Positions 1,302 through 64,000 of a DNA stretch of 64,000 nucleotides are shown here, piece by piece. The position numbers and the translations under genes are program-made. The notes beneath the pieces were generated by a model. It was not told the origin of the DNA. It made no database searches and worked only from the letters and a program-made list of their open reading frames with translations. Location of the stretch: contig JBDKRG010000059.1 of NCBI GenBank assembly GCA_039683515.1, forward strand, positions 38,615 to 102,614. Direction: 5' to 3'. Each line of letters starts with the position of its first letter. Position 1 is the stretch's first letter. The stretch is from Candidatus Sumerlaeia bacterium (GTDB taxonomy: Bacteria > Sumerlaeota > Sumerlaeia > MVZB01).

Positions 1302-2873
1302 ATGTTCGGCAGCCCAGCCAAAAAGCTGACGAAGCTCAACGCCCAGATCGACAAGGCGCTCGAAGCAAAGGATCAACGCGCCCTCGGCGAGCTGTTTAAA
1401 AAAGCGTTCGAGCTCGTGGACAACAACGACAAGGACACCAGCCTGGATTTCCTCGTCGCGCAACAGGGCCTTGCGTTGAAGCTGCTCGTCATCAACCACG
1501 TCGGCCAATCCGTCAACATGATGGGCCGGATCATCGCGCGCGCCGAACGGCTCGGCCACGAGCGCACCGCCTTCTACGCGATGGTCTGCCGCAGCTATGC
1601 CCACCTGCTGCGCGAGACCGCGCCCGGTTACGAATACGAAGGGCGCGAGGCGCTGGAAAAAGGGATCCGCCTTGCGCTCGAAGGGGACAAGAACCAGCTT
1701 CTGCGGCTGATCATGGTCATCGACAAATATACCGACGAGCTGACCAGCTACAAGCTCAAGTCATGGATTCCTCGAATCTACAAGCAAGCCGTGGCCGCGT
1801 TCGACGCCAAGGTCGGCGCCGACGCCGTCCCCACCGCCAATATGCTCGTCAACTTCGCGCCGATCCTGATGGATTCGGAATCGGCCGATGATCAGGCGCT
1901 GGCCCTCGAAGCCGTCGACCGCATCCTGGCGATCATGGCGAAATCCAAACTCGATCCCTCCGACCAGGCATGCATGCTCGTGCGCAAGGCCCAGATCCTC
2001 GACAAGATGGGGCGCACGGCCGAGGCCTATCAGCTCTTGCGCGGCACGGCCGGCACGGCCGCCGGGGAAAATGCGATTCTCGTCGCCGCGAGGCTTGCCG
2101 AAATCGAGCTGCGGATGGAGCGCGATCCGGAACAAGTCGAGTCGGCGCTCGACCAGGCGATGGCCTCGGTCAAGGGCCGGATCGATCCGCGGATGAAGAT
2201 GACTTTCCACGGCATCAAGGGCTATTGCGCGGCCCTGCGCGGCGCCGAGTCATCGACCCTCGAGTGCGCCGCCAGGCTCATGGCGTGCCGCTCCGAAAAA
2301 ACCGATGTCGGCGAATCCGACATCGCGGAAATTGTCGCCGACGGGCTCGTGCATATCGCAAGCGCGCTTTCTCACGCAGGCAATCCGGAGACGGCCCTTC
2401 AAGTGATCGACCGCGCCACGACGATCGCTGATTCCATCGACGACGAATTCCCCGACACGAAGCAGGACCTCCTGTCGAGCAAGGCGGAAATCCTGGCCGC
2501 CCTCGGCCGCAACGACGAAGCCGAAGCCATTCTCACCGACGACATTCTCGAGAAACTCGACGACGAAAATCTGCTCGACACCACCCGCCACGCCGACGCC
2601 CTCATCGACCTCGCCTCGGTGTGCATCAACAAGAAGGATTACGACCGCGCCCGGCTCGCGCTCAAAAACGCATGGGCGATGAGCGCCGAGCGCGGCGAGA
2701 AAAACAACGACCTCGCCGGCCATATTTATCTATGGATGGGAAAGCTGATGATGCTCACGGGCCAGGCGGACAGGGGCGCCGAAGCGCTCCGCCGCGCCCG
2801 CGAAACCTTCAAGGCCCGCGGCGGCGGCGTCCCGCTCAAAGCCCGCGCCATCCTGGCCGAATATGGGTGCTAG
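1302..2873 (+). CDS. hypothetical alpha-helical (TPR-like?) protein
   Basis: 523-aa ORF with ATG start and an AAGGA ribosome-binding site 8 nt upstream. Codon usage matches neighbours. Helical repeat-like composition. No family recognised. Confidence 0.5.
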   Translation: MFGSPAKKLTKLNAQIDKALEAKDQRALGELFKKAFELVDNNDKDTSLDFLVAQQGLALKLLVINHVGQSVNMMGRIIARAERLGHERTAFYAMVCRSYAHLLRETAPGYEYEGREALEKGIRLALEGDKNQLLRLIMVIDKYTDELTSYKLKSWIPRIYKQAVAAFDAKVGADAVPTANMLVNFAPILMDSESADDQALALEAVDRILAIMAKSKLDPSDQACMLVRKAQILDKMGRTAEAYQLLRGTAGTAAGENAILVAARLAEIELRMERDPEQVESALDQAMASVKGRIDPRMKMTFHGIKGYCAALRGAESSTLECAARLMACRSEKTDVGESDIAEIVADGLVHIASALSHAGNPETALQVIDRATTIADSIDDEFPDTKQDLLSSKAEILAALGRNDEAEAILTDDILEKLDDENLLDTTRHADALIDLASVCINKKDYDRARLALKNAWAMSAERGEKNNDLAGHIYLWMGKLMMLTGQADRGAEALRRARETFKARGGGVPLKARAILAEYGC

Positions 2874-2927
2874 GCGACGCGGGGGAAACCGATGCGATCG
2901 TGAACGCGCCATGAAACGGGCGGCCGC

Positions 2928-3767
2928 TCAGCCGTCGACCGACAGCTTGCGTTTATTGACCAGGGCGGCGTGGCAGGTCTTCAGGAATCTCTTGAATTGC
3001 GCGATCGACCGGTCGTCCTCGGGCGAATCCGTCAGCATGAACCGGAGGTTCTTCAGTTCTTCCGCGCCCTGCCCCCCTGTGAACATCCCGCCAAACATCA
3101 GCATCCTTGATACCGGGTCGAGGTCGACGGCGTTGAACTCCGTGAGGAGCCCGAGGAGGGTTTGATTGATCAGGTACGGCTGGCATCCGATCAGGTATTC
3201 AAGAATCATGCTGCTCGTGATGCGCTCGCCTTCAACGATTTTCTCTGCCGGACCCGGCGGAAGCAGGACCGGAATGTACCCACCGTCCTCGTGGACGTTC
3301 AATTCGGCGCGACCGTTGTCCAGCCGCTCACCCGTGATCCCGGCTTCGCGGATGTGATGCAGCAGGTAGCTCGGGCCGGGCTCGGGCGGGTTGAAATGGT
3401 CGATGATCCAATGCTCGCACGCCTGGCTGATCGGGTAGCTGATCGCCCCCCAGCAGCCCAGCGCCTCGCCCTTGACGTTCACCGGGCATTTTTCGCAAAT
3501 CGGCTTGCTCTTGCGCTCGATGCGCTGCCATGTTTCCACCAGCTCGGCAAACGTGAGCTCGGCGCTGGCGCCCATGAGCGTCTTGACCGGGAACGGAAGC
3601 GTCATCGTCTTGCTCAGCATGGCCTCGCGCTCGGGCCCCTGCTGCCGGCTCAGCGTGTAACCGATCTGCCCGGCATAGGCTCCGACCTTGGCGCGCTGCA
3701 CGAACTCCGTGTTGTCGCGCGGGGCCTGGATCGGGCACTGCGTCTTGGCGAAATAGTCGAAACCCAC
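2928..3767 (-). CDS. hypothetical Cys-rich protein
   Basis: 279-aa ORF with GTG start preceded by AAGGAG. Contains CEKCPVN...GCWG...ACEHW cysteine clusters. No family recognised. Confidence 0.45.
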   Translation of the reverse strand: MGFDYFAKTQCPIQAPRDNTEFVQRAKVGAYAGQIGYTLSRQQGPEREAMLSKTMTLPFPVKTLMGASAELTFAELVETWQRIERKSKPICEKCPVNVKGEALGCWGAISYPISQACEHWIIDHFNPPEPGPSYLLHHIREAGITGERLDNGRAELNVHEDGGYIPVLLPPGPAEKIVEGERITSSMILEYLIGCQPYLINQTLLGLLTEFNAVDLDPVSRMLMFGGMFTGGQGAEELKNLRFMLTDSPEDDRSIAQFKRFLKTCHAALVNKRKLSVDG

Positions 3768-3853: not shown

Positions 3854-4609
3854 TTACAAACGCCGGATCTGGTCGCGGCTGATGAACCCGGCGCCCTTAC
3901 CGCCGAACGAGATCATCGGCCAGTCCGGGTGCGTGCGCTCGTCGGTGATGTCGACGACCGTCCCGGCCTTGAGCTTCCACGTCTCGGTCGAGTTCTCGCT
4001 CGGGCCGGATCTCACGCTCCCCTCGGGCGAAACAATCACGCCGCGCCGAACCATGCATTCCTGATGATAATGACCGAACGCGAACGGCCACGCAACCGCC
4101 GCGACGACCGCCGCCGCGATCGCCGTCTTGCGCAGCGACAGCCGCAGCCGCGTCCCGCGCGGCCGCCACAGCGCCCATGCGCCCAGAAACAGCCCCGCCA
4201 CGCTCGCCCACGCCGCGATCGCGGTCCATTCGTTGCCGCTCATGAGCCAGTAGACCATGTTGAGCGGCGGCAGCGGCGTCAGCGCGATCTGCGTCTCGTA
4301 TTCGGGATCGATGATCGAAAGGTTCTGGCGCAGCATCCGGTCGCGGGGCGCGAACTGGAGCGCCTGCAGGTAGCGCCACTGGGCGAGCCCGCGGTCGCCG
4401 AGATGGGCATAGGCCGTGCCCAGGTTGTAGAGAAGCCGCGGGTCGTGCGGCGCCTGCTCGATGAGCTGCTCGTAGATTTCGGCCGATTCCTTGTAGTTCT
4501 GGGCCGTGAACGCCTTGTTCGCGCGCTCGAGAAGCTGCTCCTCGCCGGTCGCGGCCCACGCGGCCGACGAAAGCATCAAGGCCATGATCATTGCAGCCAG
4601 CCGCCTCAT
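3854..4609 (-). CDS. BatE-like protein (TPR repeats, TM helix, C-terminal SH3-like domain)
   Basis: 251 aa. Has a signal/TM N-terminus, a TPR-like segment (YNLGTAYAHLGD...), a second TM segment and an SH3-like tail (WKLKAGTVVDITDE...). ATG at 4609 overlaps the batD stop by 4 nt (ATGA). The 874-aa ORF in the track is the same frame extended upstream into an Arg-rich artefact. Confidence 0.65.
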   Translation of the reverse strand: MRRLAAMIMALMLSSAAWAATGEEQLLERANKAFTAQNYKESAEIYEQLIEQAPHDPRLLYNLGTAYAHLGDRGLAQWRYLQALQFAPRDRMLRQNLSIIDPEYETQIALTPLPPLNMVYWLMSGNEWTAIAAWASVAGLFLGAWALWRPRGTRLRLSLRKTAIAAAVVAAVAWPFAFGHYHQECMVRRGVIVSPEGSVRSGPSENSTETWKLKAGTVVDITDERTHPDWPMISFGGKGAGFISRDQIRRL

Positions 4610-6468
4610 GCGCGCAAACCCTCCCGCAACACGGCCCGTGTCTCCTCGCTCCAGGCGCGGACGTCGATCGGCGAGTCGATCGGCGAGTAGCTGGCCCACG
4701 CGCAGGCGTCGAGCCGCTCCAAAAGCCGCGCGACCTGCTCGCGCGTCAGGTTGCTGCCGGCGAGGAGCCGCGCGATCTCGTCGCGCGTCATCCCCTCGGC
4801 CGAGGTGTTGTAATGATCGGCGATCAGGTTGCGCACGGCGTGCTCGAACGCGCCGGCGACCTCGGCGTTGCGGCCGTCGCCGCCCTTGGCCTTGATGCGG
4901 CGCAGGCGCTTCTCGAACGCGCGCCACGCGCCGTTGCGGCGCGCCGCCGCCGGGTCGAGCGTGGCCCGCCTCCAGTCGCGATACCACATGGCCAGGATCA
5001 GCATCGACCCGCCGACCAGGAACAGCCACATGAGCGGCGATTCCATGGCCGGCTCGACGCGGCCGTGCCGCACCGAGCCGATCGCCTGCACGAAATTGAG
5101 CTGCGGGCCGTTGCCCACCTTGCGCGTGACGCTCGCGCCGCCCGGCGCGGCCGGTTCGGCGGCGACCCCCTGCGGCAACGGCTGAACCGTCACCGGCACC
5201 GGCTCGGTCCTGAGCGCGCGGTACGCCTCGCGCTCGGAATCGAAAACGGGATACGAAATCGACGGGACCTGGATCCGGCCGAACTTGCGCGGCCGCAGGC
5301 TGTACTGGAAATGCTTCGTGCCGCCGACGTAATCCTTCGGCCTGGCCGTGTCCATCCGGGCCGTCTGGTCGACGACCTCGAAGGCGTCGTTGTCGGGGAA
5401 CCGGGGCGGGCTCGCCAGTTCGACGGCGCCGCGCCCCTCGAGCGTGACGTCGAGCGTCAGCAGCTCGTCCTGGCGCATCGTGGAGCGGTCGGCGGAGGCC
5501 TTGAGCGTAAAGCTGCCGACCGTGGCGCTGAAGTTCGCCGGCTGGCCGTCGGTCGGCAGGGGACGCACCTCCAGCTTGACCGGCGCCGCCGGCAGCTGAA
5601 CCTGCATCGTGTTGGCGCCGAACGGATCGCCGAAGAACGAATCGTCGAACGGGCCGCGGCCGGATTGCCGCTGAACCGGGAGCTGGACCGCGACGAAATA
5701 GGCGCCGATCTCGGCGTCGCCCGGCTGGGTCGGCGTCAGGGTGTATTGCAGGATCGGCGCGACCTGGTAGGCGCGGTCGCCGTGGGTCTCGGTGGCGGGC
5801 TGGATGTCGCCCTGGGCGCGGAACCGCTCGTCCAGAAGCCCGCCGCCGGCCTTGAGCTGTTCGTTCGGGTATTGCAGGCCCCGGATCGGGATGTTGTCCC
5901 AGTAAATCTTGTAGGTGACCAGCACCGGCTCGCTCACGTAGGGCCGCTTGTCGCTCACCTCGACGCGCAGGAACAGGCGGCCGTTGAGCTGCTTGTTCAC
6001 GGCGGCGTTGTTGCTTTGCGCCGGCAGGATCCCCTCGTGCTTGAGGTCGTCGGGAATCATCGGCGGCGCCTGCATCGTCACGGTGACCGCGATCGGCCGG
6101 CTGCGGTAGGTCTGGCCGCCGTATTCGAGCTGCGAAGAGCCGATCGTGAACGTCCCCTGCGTCGGCGCGCGCAGCTGCCAGCGCAGGATGGTCGAGACGT
6201 TGCTCGAGCCGTTGATGATCGTCATGCGGTTCTCGCGGAAGGGACCGTTGGTGTTGACGACCTGCAGCCCGCCGAAATCCGGCATCGTCGGGTTGGCGTT
6301 CATCTGGCTGATCGAGCTGATCTCGAGGCTGTAAACGATGACCGAGCCGACTTCGACGCGCGCCTGGTCGACCGACGCGTTCAACTGGATCCCCTGCGCC
6401 GGCGCGAGCGATGCCATCGCGCACAAAATCGCGCTCATGATCAGGATGCGCTGAACAGCCGGCTTCAA
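4606..6468 (-). CDS. batD: BatD-like aerotolerance-operon protein
   Basis: 620 aa with an N-terminal signal peptide, a large beta-rich periplasmic region, and a C-terminal TM helix plus cytoplasmic tail. This is the typical BatD architecture. TTG start (alternative ATG 30 nt downstream). Operonic with batC-like and batE-like genes. Confidence 0.65.
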   Translation of the reverse strand: MKPAVQRILIMSAILCAMASLAPAQGIQLNASVDQARVEVGSVIVYSLEISSISQMNANPTMPDFGGLQVVNTNGPFRENRMTIINGSSNVSTILRWQLRAPTQGTFTIGSSQLEYGGQTYRSRPIAVTVTMQAPPMIPDDLKHEGILPAQSNNAAVNKQLNGRLFLRVEVSDKRPYVSEPVLVTYKIYWDNIPIRGLQYPNEQLKAGGGLLDERFRAQGDIQPATETHGDRAYQVAPILQYTLTPTQPGDAEIGAYFVAVQLPVQRQSGRGPFDDSFFGDPFGANTMQVQLPAAPVKLEVRPLPTDGQPANFSATVGSFTLKASADRSTMRQDELLTLDVTLEGRGAVELASPPRFPDNDAFEVVDQTARMDTARPKDYVGGTKHFQYSLRPRKFGRIQVPSISYPVFDSEREAYRALRTEPVPVTVQPLPQGVAAEPAAPGGASVTRKVGNGPQLNFVQAIGSVRHGRVEPAMESPLMWLFLVGGSMLILAMWYRDWRRATLDPAAARRNGAWRAFEKRLRRIKAKGGDGRNAEVAGAFEHAVRNLIADHYNTSAEGMTRDEIARLLAGSNLTREQVARLLERLDACAWASYSPIDSPIDVRAWSEETRAVLREGLRA

Positions 6469-55573: not shown

Positions 55574-55831
55574 GGTTGGCCTCGTAAGATCGAAATTTCA
55601 CATCGTGCTTAAAATTATCGGCCATTCACCGCCGGTTGTAAATCAGTTTGCGCGGTGACGCGCCCGTGCATGCGGAGAGGCCGTCGGTGAGCGAGTTTGC
55701 TTTGACGCCACGGACCGGAAACGGTTCGGAAATGATACCGCAGGTGTTTTTAATTCGGTAATTCCTCGCTTACGCCGGGCTGCTGCATTAAAATCCGCAA
55801 CCCGGAGAAGTTCCGCTGAAGGTGGTTGAAT

Positions 55832-58800
55832 ATGAAAACAGTCTGCGGCGTCTTGTTCATCATGGCCTTGATTTTCCCGGTTCGCTCCCACGCGGCCGAT
55901 TCGCCGACGCGCGAGGAAATCATCCGGACGATCGTGACCGGCGGGGGATTGATCGCGGGCGACGACGGCCGGCCCACGCCAGAGGAAATCGAATTCCGCC
56001 GGCGGATGGAAAGGCGCAAGGACGACCTGCTGGCCAGCCGCCTCCCGGTCCGGCACCCGGCGCTCCTCGGCCAGGACGCCAAGGCGACCGCCCTGCGCAA
56101 TATCGAGCAGGCCGACTGGGCGCGCCGGATGGCCGATCGATGGAAACGGCTCGCCGACGAGCTGGTCGCGCAGCCCGCCGGGTGGATCGATTCGATGATC
56201 CCCGACGAGACGCCCTGGTATTCGTTCGGCATGACCTGCCCCAACTGCGTCGGAACAAAATCGCAGGAGGGCGCCGGCCTCAGGATGAAATGGGACTGGC
56301 ACAACCCCGATTCGTACACGTGCGGCTTCTGCGGCGAGCGGTTCCCGTCGGCGAAATACCCCGAGACCCAGGCGCTCGTCTGCCCGCGGATGGGGCAGAC
56401 GTTCACGTTCTACATGAACGACAAGGAGCGCGCCAACCCGGACGACCGCAGCGGCCGGCTCGCGTATCACTGGGTCGGCTCGCCGATGCACGCCAGCTTC
56501 ACCGGCGCGATCCGCGGCCGCAAGGTCACGTTCATGGTCGGCGCGCTCGACAGCCTGGCCTACACGTATTACCTCACCGGCGACCCGAAGTACGCCGTCA
56601 TGACGCGCGACGTCCTGCTGCGGCTCGCCCGCTCGTATCGCAACTGGCTGTATTACGACTGCCGCTGCTCGCTGGCCGACTGCGACCCGCTTTACGCGGC
56701 GTGGCATCCGAAGGAACTCAAGCTGGAGTGGAAACGCCAGCTCGCGGCCGACGATTTCAAGAACGACACGGCCGAAAAGGCCGCGTTGATGCAGGAGTAC
56801 TGGGGCTGCGGGCGCATCTATCCGGACTGCGACAACACGGAAGTCGTCTTTAACGTCGCGCAGGCCTACGACCTGACCTACGACGCCAGGGACGCGAATG
56901 GGAAGCCGGTGTGGAGCGCGGCCCAGAAACGGGCGGTCGAGCGCGACCTGCTGCTCGAGTGGATTTTCGGGTCGGAGTATTACCTCGGCGGGATCGGCCA
57001 GGCCAGGCTCCTCAACAACAAGGCCCCCCGCATTTACCACGCGATGGCCTCCGTGGCGCGCGTCATCGGCATCCCCACGATGGCCGATACCGCGCTGCGC
57101 GGCTACGAGGCGATTCGCGACCAGGCGTTCGGCTACGACGGCCTGAGCCATGAAAGCCCGAGCTACACGAACCAGTATCTGAATGAATTGGTGAAAATTC
57201 CCGAACGCTTGCACGATTTCGAGTGGCCGGAAGAATACGCGCAGCGCAGGAAGGCCGGCGATCTTTACCGGAACGACGAGCGGCTGCGCCTGCTCTATCG
57301 GTCTTCGTTCTGGGAATTGCAGGGCAACGCGACGGAGCCGCCGCTGTCCGACACCCACGTCGGCGGAACCGTCAGCCCGATCATCATCGAGCAGAGCGCG
57401 CGGCGATACCCGGAACTGATCGACGGCCGCATGGGGGCGCTCCTGCGTGGCGCCCGCGTCAGCTCGTATTCGCTCTTCAACGTCGGCGCCCGCGAGCCGC
57501 TGCGCAACGAGCCGCTCGAGCTGCCCGAGGTCTATTTCCCCGACTGGATGACGTCGATCTTCCGGCATGGGCGCGGCGACAACGAGGCCGTGCTGGCGAT
57601 GAGCTTCGGCCGCGAAGGCAGCCACCGCCACTACGACAACCTGGCGCTGTTTTACGCCGATGGCGGCAACACCATGCTTGCCGACCAGGGCTACGTGACC
57701 GACACGCCGATCAACAGGTGGCTGCAAAGCACAAAGAGCCACAACCTCGTGATCGTCGACGACCTCGAGCAAAGGTTCCGCTGGCCCGGGGATCCGCGCA
57801 ACAAGGCGCCGCGCAAGCCGCGGCTCGAAATGATTTTCACCGGGCCGCGGCTGTCGGCGGTCGAGGCGTCGTCGGATGTTTACAGCCAGTGCGGGGATTA
57901 CCGGCGGCTGGTCGCGATGATCAAGGGCCCCGGCATGCGCACGTTCGCCGTCGATATCTTCCGCGTGAGCGGCGGCAAAAGGCAGGCCTATCAGCTCGTG
58001 AGCGAGCTGGCCGCGAGCGACTCCAAGAACGGGCGGCTCGAGTTCGAGGGCGTGACGTTGCCCGCCGAAAAACCGCTCCCCAATTTCGGCGCGAGCATCG
58101 CCGACGACGCGATGTTCGGGCTGCGCGACGAGCGCAAGGTCAAGGCGCCCACGAAACCATGGCAGGCGGTCTGGCGCGACGACAGCGGCGCGTATCGCTT
58201 CTGGAACCTGGGGGACGCCGATTTCGTCGCGGCCTACAACGGCCCCGGCCAGGAAACGCCGACCCCCGGCCGGCGCGCGCGGTTCCTCAACGTGATCCGC
58301 GAGGGCAACAATGTCGAGAGCACGTTCATCGGGCTGCACGAACCGGGCGCCCAAAACGCCGATTGGGTCGTCCAAAAGGCGCAGCGCCTGAAGACACCGA
58401 AAGCCGCCGGCCCCGACGCCGTCGCGCTCCTCATCGACACGGCGTGGGGCCAATACCTCGTCCTCAACGAATTCGCGGCCGAGGCGAAGGTCAAGGGCGT
58501 GAGCTTCCAGGGCAAGCTCGGCGTCTGGTGCAAGGAGCCCGGCGGCACCGAATGGATCGTCGCCTGCGGCGCGTCGACGTGCCGGGCCGGCAAGCTCGGT
58601 TTCGCCGGCAAGACCGCGATGTGGAACGATGAGGCCGCGATCACTTCGGCAGAGGAACTCAAGCCCGCGCACGCGCGGCCGGCCGACTGGCAGGACCCGC
58701 CGGCGGGCTGGCGGAATTACGTCCTGCTCAACGACGGCAAGAGCGACACGGGATTCCCGGTCGCGCGGACCGGCGCCGAAAACATCCGTGTCGGCATGTT

Positions 58801-58861
58801 CCCGCTGCCGAAGGAAGCCGGCGGATTCAGCCTGCCGTCGCTGAGCGTGGACGGGAAATAG
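55832..58861 (+). CDS. secreted heparinase II/III-like polysaccharide lyase family protein
   Basis: Signal peptide MKTVCGVLFIMALIFPVRSHA. Alpha/alpha-toroid-like N-terminal region. C-terminal …HRHYDNLALFYADGGNTMLADQGY… resembles the heparinase II/III C-terminal beta-sandwich. GAAGGTGG ribosome-binding site. Confidence 0.55.
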   Translation: MKTVCGVLFIMALIFPVRSHAADSPTREEIIRTIVTGGGLIAGDDGRPTPEEIEFRRRMERRKDDLLASRLPVRHPALLGQDAKATALRNIEQADWARRMADRWKRLADELVAQPAGWIDSMIPDETPWYSFGMTCPNCVGTKSQEGAGLRMKWDWHNPDSYTCGFCGERFPSAKYPETQALVCPRMGQTFTFYMNDKERANPDDRSGRLAYHWVGSPMHASFTGAIRGRKVTFMVGALDSLAYTYYLTGDPKYAVMTRDVLLRLARSYRNWLYYDCRCSLADCDPLYAAWHPKELKLEWKRQLAADDFKNDTAEKAALMQEYWGCGRIYPDCDNTEVVFNVAQAYDLTYDARDANGKPVWSAAQKRAVERDLLLEWIFGSEYYLGGIGQARLLNNKAPRIYHAMASVARVIGIPTMADTALRGYEAIRDQAFGYDGLSHESPSYTNQYLNELVKIPERLHDFEWPEEYAQRRKAGDLYRNDERLRLLYRSSFWELQGNATEPPLSDTHVGGTVSPIIIEQSARRYPELIDGRMGALLRGARVSSYSLFNVGAREPLRNEPLELPEVYFPDWMTSIFRHGRGDNEAVLAMSFGREGSHRHYDNLALFYADGGNTMLADQGYVTDTPINRWLQSTKSHNLVIVDDLEQRFRWPGDPRNKAPRKPRLEMIFTGPRLSAVEASSDVYSQCGDYRRLVAMIKGPGMRTFAVDIFRVSGGKRQAYQLVSELAASDSKNGRLEFEGVTLPAEKPLPNFGASIADDAMFGLRDERKVKAPTKPWQAVWRDDSGAYRFWNLGDADFVAAYNGPGQETPTPGRRARFLNVIREGNNVESTFIGLHEPGAQNADWVVQKAQRLKTPKAAGPDAVALLIDTAWGQYLVLNEFAAEAKVKGVSFQGKLGVWCKEPGGTEWIVACGASTCRAGKLGFAGKTAMWNDEAAITSAEELKPAHARPADWQDPPAGWRNYVLLNDGKSDTGFPVARTGAENIRVGMFPLPKEAGGFSLPSLSVDGK

Positions 58862-58884
58862 GCAAGCTGAACACTGATCGGAAA

Positions 58885-58999
58885 CCGAAAACGCGAAACC
58901 CCCGCCGGTGGTGAACCGACGGGGTTTTCGTATCTCTTTGAAACTCAAGTGGTGCCGGGAAGAGGTCTTGAACCTCCACACCCTTTCGGGTACAAGATT
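58885..58999. repeat. left direct repeat of islet (tRNA-Leu 3' half plus downstream terminator)
   Basis: ~115 bp matching 60746-60860 with a few mismatches. Confidence 0.8.
58950..58998 (-). pseudogene. partial tRNA-Leu copy (3' half: CCA end, T-arm, variable arm, 3' anticodon-stem strand)
   Basis: tggtgccgggaagaggTcttgaacctccacaccctttcgggtacaagat equals tRNA positions 60811-60859 with one mismatch. It diverges inside the anticodon loop. Confidence 0.8.
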
Positions 59000-59199
59000 C
59001 TTATATAAAAGCAGGACATTTCGTTACCGCAAGGTTCTCAACAAAGCGCACAATTTCCGGCCCAAATCCTAGACCGGGCGCGCGCGCCCGAAATCCCCAC
59101 CAACCCTTGGATTGTAAGGCCGCACAACAACCACGCGTGATGGACCGGCCCGCGACCGACGAACACTTGGTCTAATAACTATATACACGGCAATAAGCC

Positions 59200-59228
59200 T
59201 TGTATACACAACAGCTTTGGTGTATAAA
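59200..59228 (+). promoter_or_regulatory. sigma70-like promoter of islet operon
   Basis: TTGTAT, a 17-nt spacer, then TATAAA. About 50 nt upstream of ATG 59279. Confidence 0.4.
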
Positions 59229-59278
59229 TTTCCTGTTTTATTCGTTTTTGTACCACTTGTATCGCAGGGCGGTCCATA

Positions 59279-59965
59279 ATGACTATATCAGATTCAACAG
59301 AATCGCTGAAAAGTCATCCTGGTTTTGGAGGAGCGTTGCTCGCCGATAGCGCGACACAAACAGATACTGGGAAAGTTAATCTCCAAGGAATATTCACAAT
59401 GTTCTTGGCTTGGGGTTTTCCATGCTCAAGAACATGGTTTCTGACATTTACAGCATTTGATGTGCCCAACTACGACACATCGGTCAGTATTGGTGTGCGG
59501 AAAGCCGGATCGAGTTCAATTTCAAAACTGTCTAACGTGAAGGTTTCAGAGGGAAGTAAAGGTCCTTCCACTGTTAGTGTTCAGTTAAGGCATCGTTTCA
59601 ATTCGGCAGGAAGATATGAATTAGTGTGTACATTTCGTAAATCAGTAAAAAAATTGAGGATCCCGTTTGAAGTGCGGTGTAGAGAGTGGCCAGAGTTCTC
59701 AGAGGAAGAAATTGCTTTCTCACGTAAAGATTCTCATATCCCAATGAGAATTCGAGCCAATGTCCAATGCAAAAAATGCTCACATGCCTATATCTTTGAA
59801 GAGGCAGTCTTACAACAGAAATCGAAGGGGGGCATTCAGCGATTTCCCACTAACGGTCGATTTAAATGTGAGGAATGTGGTCATACAATGAATTTGCTAG
59901 ATATCCAAGGGCAAATGAGAGCCTCTCTAAAAGAACTTGTGCGCAATGCCATGAAAAAGGACTGA
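59279..59965 (+). CDS. hypothetical protein with C-terminal CxxC…CxxC zinc-ribbon (islet gene A)
   Basis: 228 aa. Beta-rich N-terminal ~160 aa, then CKKCSHAY…(29 aa)…CEECGHT. AT-rich codon usage unlike the flanking genes. Confidence 0.55.
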   Translation: MTISDSTESLKSHPGFGGALLADSATQTDTGKVNLQGIFTMFLAWGFPCSRTWFLTFTAFDVPNYDTSVSIGVRKAGSSSISKLSNVKVSEGSKGPSTVSVQLRHRFNSAGRYELVCTFRKSVKKLRIPFEVRCREWPEFSEEEIAFSRKDSHIPMRIRANVQCKKCSHAYIFEEAVLQQKSKGGIQRFPTNGRFKCEECGHTMNLLDIQGQMRASLKELVRNAMKKD

Positions 59966-59968
59966 GTC

Positions 59969-60670
59969 ATGTTCAGTCCATACCACAAACTCACGAATTG
60001 TCCACGGTTGGAAAGGCATATAGCAACGCTTAGGGCAGCGGGGAATGTTGCCGACGATGTGTTTCAAAATCACAATCGCTATCACTATGCACTGATACAT
60101 AAATTGAAATGTGCCCGAACCAGTTTTGACCGTCTCCAAAATGAGCTCACGGATACTTCGCCAGAGCAAATTGTGAGCGATTCAGGAGAGTTTCTATACT
60201 CGATCAATGCGTGCATCGATAGTTTCTTCTACACGAGCGGTAGCGCGATGGATATCTTAGCCAGGGAAGTCCTCACCTATTTTTCAATTGCGATGCCTAA
60301 TAAAGTCTACTATAGAACAGCTCGAGAAGAACTCACAACTCATCGACCTGGTGACGTTTTGATTTCAAAGCTTGCAGACCCTACATGGAAGAGCGAGTTT
60401 TCCAACTACAGAAACGCTTTAACACATGAGGTCCTTATTGCCGGTGTCTTTTCGATAAATTTTGTGATGGATGGAGCAACACAACGCAAGACAATCGTTT
60501 TCCCTCTCCCAGATGATCCTCGAACTGATCCTCAGGCGAGAACCTTCAGGCAGAATAAAGATGTTCAACTTTACTGTGATCGAACCTTACGCAGATTGTT
60601 GTCATTGATCAACACGATCTATGGTGATCTGTGTTCTCGAATTCAATCGAACCAATCCCTTCCTCTTTAA
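59969..60670 (+). CDS. hypothetical alpha-helical protein with R-x4-H motif (possible HEPN-like; islet gene B)
   Basis: 233 aa. Start is 3 nt after the gene A stop. YRNALTHEV matches the minimal HEPN Rx4-6H signature. No family recognised with confidence. Confidence 0.5.
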   Translation: MFSPYHKLTNCPRLERHIATLRAAGNVADDVFQNHNRYHYALIHKLKCARTSFDRLQNELTDTSPEQIVSDSGEFLYSINACIDSFFYTSGSAMDILAREVLTYFSIAMPNKVYYRTAREELTTHRPGDVLISKLADPTWKSEFSNYRNALTHEVLIAGVFSINFVMDGATQRKTIVFPLPDDPRTDPQARTFRQNKDVQLYCDRTLRRLLSLINTIYGDLCSRIQSNQSLPL

Positions 60671-60745
60671 AAAAAAAGATAGTTGCATCTTGCGGATAAT
60701 AAATCCGTATCTCTTGCCAACACCGCGGAATGTACCGGAAGCGGA

Positions 60746-60860
60746 CCGAAAACGCGAAAACCCCGCCGGTGGTGAACCGACGGGGGTTTCGTATCTTCAA
60801 GAAACTCAAGTGGTGCCGGGAAGAGGACTTGAACCTCCACACCCTTTCGGGTACAAGATC
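60746..60860. repeat. right direct repeat of islet (part of intact tRNA-Leu plus its terminator)
   Basis: Matches 58885-58999. Confidence 0.8.
60748..60788 (-). terminator. rho-independent terminator of tRNA-Leu
   Basis: In the minus-strand transcript: cccccgtcggttcaccaccggcgggg hairpin followed by ttttcgcgtttt. Duplicated at 58888-58928. Confidence 0.6.
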
Positions 60861-60897
60861 CTTAGTCTTGCGCGTCTGCCAGTTCCGCCATCCCGGC
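60811..60897 (-). tRNA. tRNA-Leu (type II, long variable arm); anticodon loop CUAAGGA reads as AAG by position
   Basis: GCCGGGATGGCGGAACTGGCAGACGCGCAAGACTAAGGATCTTGTACCCGAAAGGGTGTGGAGGTTCAAGTCCTCTTCCCGGCACCA. 7-bp acceptor stem, GG in the D-loop, GTTCAAGTC T-loop, encoded CCA. Near-collinear with bacterial tRNA-Leu. Confidence 0.8.
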
Positions 60898-61291
60898 ACC
60901 TTGGCGAGCCTTGCGGCACGCCCCAAAACTCCACCTAACCAAATTCCGCCGACGCTCTCAACCATTTTTTGAAGAGAATTTTTACTCCAGGCAACAAGGG
61001 GTTGAGAATAGCGCGTTTGGAGCGCGAAATAAATCGGCGGGGGCGGTTGACGCGGGCGTTGATGTCTTCGCGCCACGGCCCATCGATTTCCGGTTGCTCG
61101 AACAGATTTTAATCCCCTCGACCGATATCCGCCCTGGATCCGGCACAATCCACCGAGTCGGGAATGCCTTTTCTTCGCGTTCCGGGCGTCCAGGCGCCCC
61201 TGAATTCCATGTAAAAAACGATTGAATTTTTGTAATCTGCGTCATCGGACGCTCAGGGGCGATTTTCAGTCGATTTTGAAATTCCGGGGGA

Positions 61292-64000
61292 ATGCGGTCG
61301 ATGCGATCCAGCCACGCCACTTCCAGGGGCGCCTTGCGCCTGCCGATTTTGATTGTCCTCGCGCTGACGCTCGTTCAGCCGGCGCCCGCGCTCACGCCGC
61401 CGCCGGCCGGCGGCATCGAGGCCTATCGCCAGGACGGCACCTTCGAGAAGCGCCGCGCGTTCGCCGAGAAGCTCGGCAATCACCTGATCAACCCCGCGCT
61501 CCTCAAGAGCAAGCTCGCCGGGCTTTCGGGGGGGCCGGCGCTCCAGGCGCTCCCCTACAAGCCCGGCCTCGCCTCCAAGGGGACGCAGCGCGTGCTCGTC
61601 TTCGCGGTCGACTTCCCCGATTACCCCGCCAAGCTCGACACGCCGACGATGTCCAACCGCCTGTTCAGCACGACGATCACCGAGAACCAGCCCTACGAAA
61701 GCATGGCGAAATATTACCGGCGCTCCTCGTACAACCAGCTCACGATCACCGGCGAGGTCATGGCGCGCCACCGCGCCGCGCACAACCGCAGCTACTACAC
61801 CGACAACGCCGGCACGCTCATCGCCGAGCTCTTCAACGCCTACAACTACAGCAAGGACTTCTCCGTCTACGACAACGACGGCGACGGCAAGATCGATTAC
61901 TTCATCATCTTCTGGACCGGCAAGGACGAGGGCTGGGGCAGCTTCTGGTGGTCGTGGAACAACAGCATCAACGACCCCACGTGGAAGGTCGACGGCAAGA
62001 CGATCGGCAACTTCAGCTGGATCGCCGAGGACAACTGCCTGACCGATTACGGCTACGACATGGACCCGCGCACGGCGATCCACGAGACCGGCCACGCGCT
62101 CGGCCTGCCCGACTACTACGATTACGACGACAAGGTCGGCCCCAAGGGCGGGCTCGGCGGGACCGACATGATGGACAACGGCTGGCACGACCACAACGCG
62201 TTCAGCAAGTGGCTCCTGGAATGGATCGCGCCGACCGTCGTCGGCGGCACGGGGACGCTTTACAAATACCCGCAAATGCGCCCGTCGTCGCTCTACGCCG
62301 ACGCCGTCGCGATCATGCCGGGGATGACCGCGACCAACCCGTTCACCGAGTTCTACCTGGTGCAGAACCGCGTGCGCGGCTCGAAGACGACGAGCAACGA
62401 CTACACGCTCCCCGGCGACGGCGTCATCGTCTGGCACGTCGACGCGCGGCTCAACTCGACGGGCAACGGCTTCAAGTACGACAACAGCACCACCGACCAC
62501 AAGCTGCTCAAGCTGATGGAGGCCGACGGCGGCGACCACATCGAGAAAAACATGGGCTTCGCCACGGCCGATTTCTACACGCCCGGCTCGTACCTGTCGC
62601 CGGTTTCGACGCCGACGAGCGCCAACTACGCCGGGGCGCGCACGGGCGTGACCGTGTTCAACATCGCCCCCGTCACGTTCAGCTGGCCGCCGGTGGCGGC
62701 CGGGACGTGCGGCGTCCAGTTCATGAACGCCGGTTCGTCGACGAACTGGATCGGCATCGGCGAGGCGGTCGACAACAACAACCTGGTCTGGGCGACGGGC
62801 GCAAGCAGCAGCGCGCTGACGTGGTTCGGCCAGAAATCGATCTACAAAATCGGCGGCGACGCCGCGCAGTGCAGCTCGCCCGGCAATTCGCAGTACGTCA
62901 ACCTGGACGCCCGGCTGACCGGCCCCGGCCCGCTGACGTTCCAATGGAAGGTCTCGTCGGAATCCGGCAAGGACTGGCTCGAGTTCTGGCTCGACGGCGT
63001 GCGCCAGGACCGGATCAGCGGCTCGACGAACTTCGCGCAGAAAGCCTACAACCTGACGGCCGGGTCCCACACGATCCGGTGGAAATACGTCAAAGACGCC
63101 GCCGGGGCGGCCGGCTACGATTGCGGCTGGGTCGACGCCGTCGATTACTCGTACGTGCCGTTCGCAGTGGCCGTCGACAACAACTCGACAACGTGGACGC
63201 AGTCCGGCAGCATGCAGTGGTTCGGCGAGGACAAGGAATACACCTTCGGCGGCAGCGCGGCGCGCTCGGGCCCGGTCGCCGACGGCCAGGACTCGACGTT
63301 CAAGACCACCGTGGCCGGCCCCGGCTGGGTCGATTTCGCGTGGAAGGTCTCGTCGCAAAGCGGCGACATCCTGCGCCTGCGCAAAAACGGCGTCAACATC
63401 GCCAACATCAGCGGCGAGGTCGACTGGACGACGAAAACCCTCTACCTGGATTCGGGCTACAACATCATCGAATGGGCGTATATCAAGAACAGCTCGGGCG
63501 CGGCCGGCCAGGACTGCGGCTGGGTCGATCACATCCGGTTCAGTTCGCCGGCCATCAATCGGCACACGCTCGCGCAAGGGGTCGACAACAGCGTGCTGGC
63601 CTGGACGAGCATCCCGTATAATGCGTGGCGATACGTAAGCTCGCCCAACCACGACGGCGCCGACGCCGCCGCGTGCAGCATGTCGGTCAAGGGCCAGACC
63701 GCCACGCTGCGCACGGTCGTGACCGGCCCCGGCACGCTCACCTACTGGTACAAGGACGATCCGACGAATTCCTCCGGATGGCTCGATGTTTTCATCGACG
63801 GCAAGTATGCCGGCAGCGGCACCGACACGTCATGGAATCAAAAATCCCTCACGATCGCCGAGGGCCTCCATGTTGTCGATTGGGTCTATACGATCGAAGG
63901 AAACAATGTCGATACGTTCGCCATCGACCAGGTCGAATACACGCCGGCCAACCTCGATTTGGTCGAGGCGCTCGACAACCCGCAGATCAAGTGGGAAACG
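61292..64000 (+). CDS. secreted M6-family (InhA-like) zinc metalloprotease with repeated C-terminal beta-sandwich modules, 3'-partial
   Basis: Not in the ORF track because it has no stop within the window. Signal peptide ALRLPILIVLALTLVQPAPA. HExxH motif AIHETGHALGLPDYYDYDD. At least four ~120-aa repeats (…FQWKVSSESG.DWLEFWLDG…GYDCGWVDAV.YS). The two 799-aa track ORFs here are wrong frames. Confidence 0.7.
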   Translation, partial: MRSMRSSHATSRGALRLPILIVLALTLVQPAPALTPPPAGGIEAYRQDGTFEKRRAFAEKLGNHLINPALLKSKLAGLSGGPALQALPYKPGLASKGTQRVLVFAVDFPDYPAKLDTPTMSNRLFSTTITENQPYESMAKYYRRSSYNQLTITGEVMARHRAAHNRSYYTDNAGTLIAELFNAYNYSKDFSVYDNDGDGKIDYFIIFWTGKDEGWGSFWWSWNNSINDPTWKVDGKTIGNFSWIAEDNCLTDYGYDMDPRTAIHETGHALGLPDYYDYDDKVGPKGGLGGTDMMDNGWHDHNAFSKWLLEWIAPTVVGGTGTLYKYPQMRPSSLYADAVAIMPGMTATNPFTEFYLVQNRVRGSKTTSNDYTLPGDGVIVWHVDARLNSTGNGFKYDNSTTDHKLLKLMEADGGDHIEKNMGFATADFYTPGSYLSPVSTPTSANYAGARTGVTVFNIAPVTFSWPPVAAGTCGVQFMNAGSSTNWIGIGEAVDNNNLVWATGASSSALTWFGQKSIYKIGGDAAQCSSPGNSQYVNLDARLTGPGPLTFQWKVSSESGKDWLEFWLDGVRQDRISGSTNFAQKAYNLTAGSHTIRWKYVKDAAGAAGYDCGWVDAVDYSYVPFAVAVDNNSTTWTQSGSMQWFGEDKEYTFGGSAARSGPVADGQDSTFKTTVAGPGWVDFAWKVSSQSGDILRLRKNGVNIANISGEVDWTTKTLYLDSGYNIIEWAYIKNSSGAAGQDCGWVDHIRFSSPAINRHTLAQGVDNSVLAWTSIPYNAWRYVSSPNHDGADAAACSMSVKGQTATLRTVVTGPGTLTYWYKDDPTNSSGWLDVFIDGKYAGSGTDTSWNQKSLTIAEGLHVVDWVYTIEGNNVDTFAIDQVEYTPANLDLVEALDNPQIKWET

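Follow-up and report, generated by a model that had tools for sequence, protein, structure and literature searches.

The stretch analysed here (the window) comprises 64,000 nt of contig JBDKRG010000059.1 of a Candidatus Sumerlaeia bacterium, and it contains a small AT-rich islet that lies against a tRNA-Leu gene and carries two genes, referred to below as A and B (Table 1). The islet extends from 59004 to 60744 (1,741 bp) and has a G+C content (GC) of 0.443, versus 0.642 for the window. The change is abrupt, from 0.64-0.69 outside to 0.41-0.46 between ~59000 and ~60750, and it represents the sole dip on a kilobase scale, as every other kb of the window has a GC of 0.58 or more. At third codon positions (GC3) the values are 0.37 for gene A and 0.44 for gene B, and 0.89-0.92 for the flanking host genes. 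The two genes are co-directional with 3 nt between them, and they encode a DUF6941 protein with a zinc ribbon (A) and a HEPN protein (B), a candidate regulator and toxin, respectively.

The islet and its insertion at tRNA-Leu

The islet is bracketed by direct repeats of 120 nt (58884-59003 and 60745-60864) with 8 mismatches (93% identity), each of which is composed of the 3' 54 nt of tRNA-Leu and a hairpin terminator of 66 nt. The identity between the two copies breaks off abruptly at tRNA nucleotide 33, and such a repeat boundary within the anticodon loop is the classic signature of a tyrosine integrase. The only tRNA that was recovered by ARAGORN and Rfam was the intact tRNA-Leu(AAG). The anticodon AAG, with an A at position 34, is uncommon in bacteria, in which CUY codons are usually read by GAG. 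At position 37 the functional tRNA-Leu has a G and the displaced fragment an A, and the fragment also has a change in the T-loop.

Islander maps integrase-borne islands by the occurrence of an intact tRNA gene (tDNA) together with a 3' fragment that has been displaced ('regenerated target and displaced fragment'), and anticodon-centred sites constitute the commonest class among the islands thus described (2083 of 3919; PMC4383910). With respect to the tDNA the islet conforms to the Islander definition, as the foreign DNA has an intact tDNA on one side and the cognate 3' fragment, oriented alike, on the other. It does not conform with respect to the on-board integrase, as it carries A and B only. 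Neither the islet nor any of the ten scanned genes around it contained an integrase, and six-frame translation of the non-coding arms yielded no remnant of one. Without an integrase aboard, the islet can be classed as no more than a decayed or CIME-like element (CIME, cis-mobilizable element). It shares with tRNA islands and CIMEs (PMC4383910, PMC5704250) the intact tDNA with a displaced 3' fragment in direct orientation, the boundary in the anticodon loop, the foreign composition and the retention of both ends resembling attachment (att) sites without integration genes. It differs in its size of 1.74 kb, which is far below that of typical islands, and in that the repeat extends 66 nt past the tRNA into the terminator; its excision and its mobilisation in trans are putative.

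The flanks of the islet are of a housekeeping nature and encode, among others, a heparinase II/III-like protein, a major facilitator superfamily (MFS) transporter, an HDOD protein, an iron-containing alcohol dehydrogenase (Fe-ADH), an aspartate-semialdehyde dehydrogenase and a UDP-glucose dehydrogenase. Together with the GC3 contrast of ~0.5 and the displaced tRNA 3' fragment with its boundary in the anticodon loop, these flanks support the conclusion that the islet is horizontally acquired DNA. An earlier interpretation that was made without database searches (the sequence-only reading) had already pointed to the low-GC segment, the repeats of tRNA-Leu 3' half plus terminator (estimated at ~115 bp), the two closely spaced open reading frames (ORFs), the absence of an integrase and horizontal acquisition, and on all these points it was borne out. 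It had furthermore provided the islet with a sigma70-like promoter of its own. The sequence in question (TTGTAT-17-TATAAA) is indeed present at 59200-59228, but its -35 element fits 3 of 6 positions, the promoter scan does not call the site, and the number of promoter-like sites in the region (4) lies within the range of shuffled sequences (2.8 +/- 1.6). The leader showed no significant match in Rfam, and neither the arms nor the leader showed similarity to the other loci that were compared.

Based on the above, an integrative element would have entered tRNA-Leu(AAG) by recombination of the tyrosine-integrase type in the anticodon loop. The repeat copy that adjoins the intact gene (tRNA 3' half and terminator) would have arrived with the element. 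The integrase would since have disappeared by decay to a CIME-like remnant, or may always have been supplied in trans. The element-borne copy of the repeat is 93% identical to the chromosomal copy, terminator included, which suggests that the element earlier resided in a related host. Compared to the other A-B loci discussed below, the window copy shows the largest GC contrast and is the sole one with long flanking repeats, which fits a recent arrival. The transcript of A and B probably ends at the 60745-60810 hairpin too.

Several further observations concern the islet or its surroundings. A contig from an independent assembly (L029; Logan SRR15035646, 1,889 nt) is 100% identical to positions 58969-60857 of the window, starts and finishes inside the repeat and has a terminal overlap of 28 nt. 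It was considered as proof of an excised circle and rejected as such: both ends lie where the two repeat copies are identical over their longest stretch, and they are therefore read as a break in the assembly (de Bruijn graph) and not as evidence of excision, although a circular form may exist. When metagenomes were scanned with the 25-nt core of the terminator (CCCCGCCGGTGGTGAACCGACGGGG), one exact match was returned, between two genes of an unrelated high-GC contig (L024 2186-2210) with no tRNA near it, which is probably a convergent hairpin. Finally, the long antisense ORFs at 55643-58981 (minus strand, 1,112 aa) and 61253-63652 (minus strand, 799 aa) overlap real plus-strand genes and were discarded as high-GC artefacts, as GC3 backs the genes at 55826-58861 and from 61292 to beyond 64000, both on the plus strand.

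The proteins encoded by genes A and B

Many immune and toxin-antitoxin systems, such as Cas13, Csm6, RnlA, HepT and RAZR, rely on a HEPN RNase for killing or arrest. Direct searches with gene B gave no match in Pfam, NCBIfam, PADLOC, PHROGs or PDB sequences. The protein does not reach the gathering score of the Cthe_2314-like HEPN family (PF18730) and does not match that model even at E <= 1, which marks it as a divergent subfamily. The link to the family was obtained via distant relatives only. Close homologues of B number more than 140 and have a nearly constant length of 230-236 aa, and a profile of the B family recovered only 212 relatives from 1.84 billion representative proteins. In an alignment of 83 distant relatives (~20% identity) no column is invariant apart from R148 and H153. 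PF18730 was matched by 51 of 82 distant relatives and HEPN_LA2681 by four, and the profile reached PF18730-positive proteins at E-values of 1e-21 to 1e-6. An hhalign comparison between the B family and 16 PF18730-positive proteins, including one named 'Cthe_2314 family HEPN domain-containing protein' by NCBI, gave a probability of 99.6% and an E-value of 1.4e-23 over 199 columns, with the RNAxTHE motifs aligned. The homology to bona fide members of PF18730 thus covers the whole domain. The shared characteristics, over ~200 aligned columns, include length and architecture, the RNxxTHE motif, an LPDDP segment and a C-terminus that ends in LP[IL].

Among 48 close homologues of B the motif R148-N149-x2-T152-H153-E154 (in B: R148-N149-A-L-T-H153) is invariant, and the other invariant residues include Y38, K45, N80, D84, G91, D95, W140, D182, P184 and a few more. 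The motif is of the Rx4-6H type with a polar residue after the arginine, as is characteristic of HEPN proteins. The AlphaFold (AF2) model of B is helical (predicted local distance difference test score, pLDDT, of 96) and places the motif at the C-terminal end of helix 141-153, followed by a beta-hairpin insert and a long last helix. The invariant D95xxxR99 is found in the long helix that precedes the motif helix. In the general layout of HEPN domains the motif ends helix 3, the arginine is followed by a polar residue and helix 2 provides an acidic Ex3[KR]-like element (PMC3710099), and the position of the motif in B, the asparagine after R148 and the D95xxxR99 element fit this layout. The best Foldseek match of B was the HEPN toxin chain of the MntA toxin-antitoxin complex (7bxo_F; probability 0.99), and HepT and LsoA were among the best structural matches. 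Compared to HepT, B is ~100 aa longer and carries the beta-hairpin insert after the motif. On the basis of the profile comparison, B is assigned to the Cthe_2314-like HEPN family, as a divergent member. From this assignment it is predicted to be a metal-independent endoRNase, in which, by analogy with other HEPN RNases, R148-N-x3-H153 and D95/R99 of helix 2 should constitute a composite active site within a homodimer.

Gene A matches the Pfam domain DUF6941 (PF22091) over residues 19-121 with an E-value of 3e-6 and 28.0 bits, versus a cutoff of 27, and the same domain was matched by 16 of the 18 members of the A family (best E 3e-9). The AF2 model (pLDDT 89.7) shows a beta-sandwich (~15-134), a zinc ribbon and a conserved C-terminal helix (207-227). 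The knuckles of the ribbon are formed by C164/C167, located between strands 157-163 and 170-176, and by C197/C200, located between strands 194-196 and 203-205; all four cysteines are invariant and zinc binding is predicted. Other invariant residues include IFEE at 172-175 and D208, Q210, G211 and R214. The sequence-only reading had correctly described A as a beta-rich protein with a CxxC...CxxC zinc ribbon and B as an alpha-helical protein with the R-x4-H signature of HEPN RNases. Its statement that neither protein belonged to a nameable family has to be withdrawn, given the match of A to DUF6941 and the connection of B to the Cthe_2314-like HEPNs.

Pairing, distribution and genomic neighbourhood

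Through B, 23 loci were fetched from metagenomes and from 13 species-representative genomes, of which 16 were non-redundant. In 23 out of 23 loci a full-length ORF of the A family (E <= 1e-52) was located immediately upstream of B on the same strand, so that the co-occurrence that the sequence-only reading had proposed to check was found throughout. The stop of A and the start of B overlapped (TAATG, ATGA or 8 nt) or were separated by at most 5 nt in all 16 non-redundant loci. The pairwise identities of A and B are correlated (r = 0.81), and A is the more divergent of the two in 98% of the pairs, with a mean identity of 38% versus 50% for B. A and B are thus an obligate pair, of which we found no published description.

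The A-B pair was recovered from 13 of 185,579 species genomes, all of which were metagenome-assembled genomes (MAGs), and these belong to the Bacteroidota, Acidobacteriota (Aminicenantes), Ignavibacteriota, Cloacimonadota, Armatimonadota, Planctomycetota, Chloroflexota and Thermotogota. The pair was not found in IMG/VR, among the INPHARED phages or among the PLSDB plasmids. In most loci the GC of A-B is below that of the flanks but follows that of the host (0.29-0.58). The sequence-only reading had also raised the question whether the pair resides in defence islands. In several loci it indeed recurs near integrases, restriction-modification (RM), toxin-antitoxin and Gabija-like genes or insertion sequences (IS), as listed in Table 1, and seven more loci included two integrases and matches to several PADLOC families, amid ordinary genes. 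The islet of the window, however, stands alone among housekeeping genes. Varied contexts and patchy spread are the pattern of a mobile conflict module.

Two of the loci display additional features. In L010 an exact direct repeat of 21 nt (CGCACCTGCCGCGCCACGGGT; at 5238 and 7423) surrounds A-B and the DUF433/DUF5615 toxin-antitoxin pair, with MazEF and IS3-family transposases nearby. In L009 (4082-4156; = L017), a Cyclobacteriaceae MAG, A-B lies 1.2 kb downstream of tRNA-Asn, with all of a type I RM system next to it, possibly a further case of an island associated with a tRNA gene.

It could be argued that A and B have a role outside conflict, in RNA processing or regulation, or that they are decaying junk carried along with the element. 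Some HEPN proteins do process RNA, like Las1 and Swt1 (PMC3710099), and the neighbours of the pair are ordinary in some loci (L003 and L008). Nevertheless, we regard this explanation as highly improbable in view of the extremely patchy distribution, the varied contexts and the foreign composition. Moreover, in the window copy neither ORF is truncated and none of the family-invariant residues has been lost, which speaks against decay.

The HEPN genes of the wider family show a different association. Whereas the B subfamily is strictly paired with the DUF6941-zinc-ribbon gene, the bona fide Cthe_2314 HEPN genes of another branch (L025, L027 and L028) constitute the second genes of tight pairs, with a gap of 7-10 nt, of which the upstream gene encodes a conserved protein of ~255 aa (MSLVITTFVPEGIVMASDSRQ...) different from A. 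This protein gave no match in Pfam, PADLOC or PDB and is unrelated to A. The pairs adjoin MmeI-like or HinfI RM, AbiEii and SocA/Panacea genes, and they look like a second uncharacterised two-gene HEPN module. In the 2013 survey of HEPN proteins the operon associations of the Cthe_2314-like family were given as 'none detected' (Anantharaman et al. 2013, PMC3710099). The fact that the HEPN gene is kept while the upstream genes differ between branches suggests a conserved effector with interchangeable partners.

Table 1. Positions of the features of the islet in the window, and of related gene pairs and neighbouring genes at other loci (L numbers)
Locus	Feature	Position	Strand	Remarks
Window	Chromosomal copy of the tRNA-Leu terminator hairpin; outer left repeat (attR-like end)	58884..58949	-	-27.9 kcal/mol; 60/66 identical to 60745-60810; terminator-like site called at 58905-58893
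Window	Displaced tRNA-Leu 3' fragment (nucleotide 33 to CCA), not a functional gene	58950..59003	-	52/54 identical to 60811-60864; no ARAGORN call
Window	Non-coding leader of the islet, 275 nt	59004..59278	+	GC 0.49; without ORF remnant in any frame
Window	Gene A, 228 aa: DUF6941 beta-sandwich, Cys4 zinc ribbon and C-terminal helix; predicted partner of B (regulator, antitoxin or sensor)	59279..59965	+	
Window	Gene B, 233 aa: HEPN protein of a divergent Cthe_2314-like branch; predicted metal-independent endoRNase (R148-N-x3-H153 plus D95/R99)	59969..60670	+	
Window	Element-side terminator hairpin, now serving the intact tRNA-Leu	60745..60810	-	-31.6 kcal/mol; terminator-like site called at 60766-60754
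Window	Intact tRNA-Leu(AAG); its 3' 54 nt (60811-60864) form the inner right repeat (attL-like end)	60811..60897	-	ARAGORN; Rfam tRNA model 51.6 bits
L025	Pair of ~255-aa protein and Cthe_2314 HEPN	4227-5744		
L027	Pair of ~255-aa protein and Cthe_2314 HEPN	1882-3405		
L028	Pair of ~255-aa protein and Cthe_2314 HEPN	4227-5753		
L001	Neighbours of A-B			Gabija-like OLD-TOPRIM and UvrD genes, HNH protein, CI-type repressor
L004	Neighbours of A-B			Type ISP RM domain, DDE transposase
L007	Neighbour of A-B			Adjoining tyrosine integrase
L009	Neighbours of A-B			Type I RM system, tRNA-Asn
L010	Neighbours of A-B			MazEF, DUF433/DUF5615 pair, two IS elements

Proposed mode of action and alternatives

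Taken together, the data make it reasonably probable that the A-B islet is a two-gene HEPN module of toxin plus regulator, acting in a toxin-antitoxin or abortive-infection manner and residing on a decayed or integrase-less integrative element. To go by the sequences, it is plausibly a new toxin-antitoxin or anti-phage module, and in this sense the sequence-only reading as a whole is supported as a hypothesis. Basically, the cargo would consist of co-translated A and B, in which A, produced in step with B, would bind the latter and restrain its RNase activity at rest. The loss of A, or the engagement of A by a cue from an invader, would then free B, upon which cellular RNA would be cleaved and growth would stop. 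The view of A as an inhibitor is favoured by the gene order and the coupling of the two genes, and their tight translational coupling and joint inheritance lend indirect support to a toxin-antitoxin module. The proposed arrangement of a HEPN RNase toxin with a controlling protein partner is the one found in HepT-MntA (type VII), RnlA-RnlB and LsoA-LsoB, albeit that A is neither an MNT nucleotidyltransferase nor RnlB-like and shows no sequence match to those families. A precedent is the combination of zinc ribbon and HEPN, which has been validated as anti-phage in RAZR/PD-T7-4 (PMC13017515) and HEC-08 (10.1101/2024.01.29.577857).

A number of observations weigh against the interpretation as a toxin-plus-regulator module on a mobile element. 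With its 228 aa, A is a large and well-folded protein, unlike the typical small and labile antitoxins. An empty tRNA-Leu site was not found in a relative in the metagenome scan with the 25-nt terminator core. A, B and the distant HEPN relatives did not match any model of PADLOC-DB 2.0 (E <= 0.1-1), which covers PD-T7-4/RAZR, HEC-08, Abi (abortive infection) and HEPN systems among others. Furthermore, the islet lies outside any defence island, the neighbours in L003 and L008 are the ordinary ones referred to above, and the connection to defence or mobile genes is anecdotal, as it derives from the listed loci rather than from a formal enrichment test.

An alternative is that the pair serves addiction only and confers no immunity. 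B would then be the toxin and A the antitoxin, and loss of the module would kill the cell, which would stabilise a small element or allow the module to persist as selfish DNA. In favour of this, the gene order is antitoxin-first with translational coupling, A evolves faster than B, other toxin-antitoxin pairs are located beside A-B in L010, and HEPN toxins with a protein antitoxin are established, as the structures of HepT-MntA exemplify. In addition, A and B are the sole genes that remain between the two retained att sites of the islet, which is what one would expect of an addiction module that cannot be lost before the rest. However, A is fully structured and contains a beta-sandwich of the ligand-binding type, which exceeds the need of a simple neutralisation, and RM, Gabija-like or Abi genes are often neighbours. 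Considering both sides we deem addiction without immunity unlikely, though it deserves to be taken seriously; it overlaps with the toxin-plus-regulator module proposed here, since toxin-antitoxin and abortive-infection roles are compatible.

A different division of labour would be one in which A is a sensor and activator instead of an inhibitor. A phage protein or assembly would be detected through the zinc ribbon and beta-sandwich, and this detection would arrange B dimers into an active RNase; on its own, B would be neither active nor toxic. The model for this is RAZR, in which the RNase is switched on when a Cys4 zinc ribbon, fused to the HEPN domain, senses phage proteins of ring shape (PMC13017515), and HEC-08 likewise has HEPN together with zinc fingers. 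The swapping of partners across the Cthe_2314 family also suggests an activator, as the pairing of the HEPN in other branches with the unrelated upstream protein of ~255 aa would correspond to a shared effector with swappable sensors, and the faster divergence of A would suit such a sensor. On the other hand, RAZR/PD-T7-4 is a single polypeptide with a DUF4145 HEPN and without a beta-sandwich, whereas A and B are two proteins with their domains on separate polypeptides. The likeness concerns the domain repertoire only, as neither A nor B shows homology to the PADLOC models of RAZR or a match to DUF4145 in Pfam. We therefore consider a role of A as sensor and activator rather improbable.

The toxin-plus-regulator module can be given a broader, more speculative setting. 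The Cthe_2314-like HEPN might be the shared RNase effector of a new family of two-gene immune systems, in which unrelated upstream 'sensors' replace one another from branch to branch (here the DUF6941-zinc-ribbon protein, in another branch the ~255-aa protein), and the tRNA-Leu islet might be a minimal, integrase-less cassette that moves between phyla by means of an integrase borrowed in trans. We put this forward tentatively, as an extension that is doubtful in its entirety.

Irrespective of this extension, the islet, with its intact att-like ends and its lack of an integrase, is exceptionally small for a tRNA-integrated element, and provides a clean example of a single defence or toxin-antitoxin cassette that was left at, or delivered to, a tRNA hotspot. 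Should the hint hold that the beta-sandwich and zinc ribbon of A sense in a way that resembles the zinc ribbon of RAZR, then A would represent a new module for the recognition of triggers. For the Cthe_2314 branch of the HEPN proteins, an orphan without known partner or context since 2013, the locus in the window supplies both, a partner that is strictly conserved and a context that is mobile and defence-like, with A-B as a concrete two-gene candidate of ~1.4 kb.

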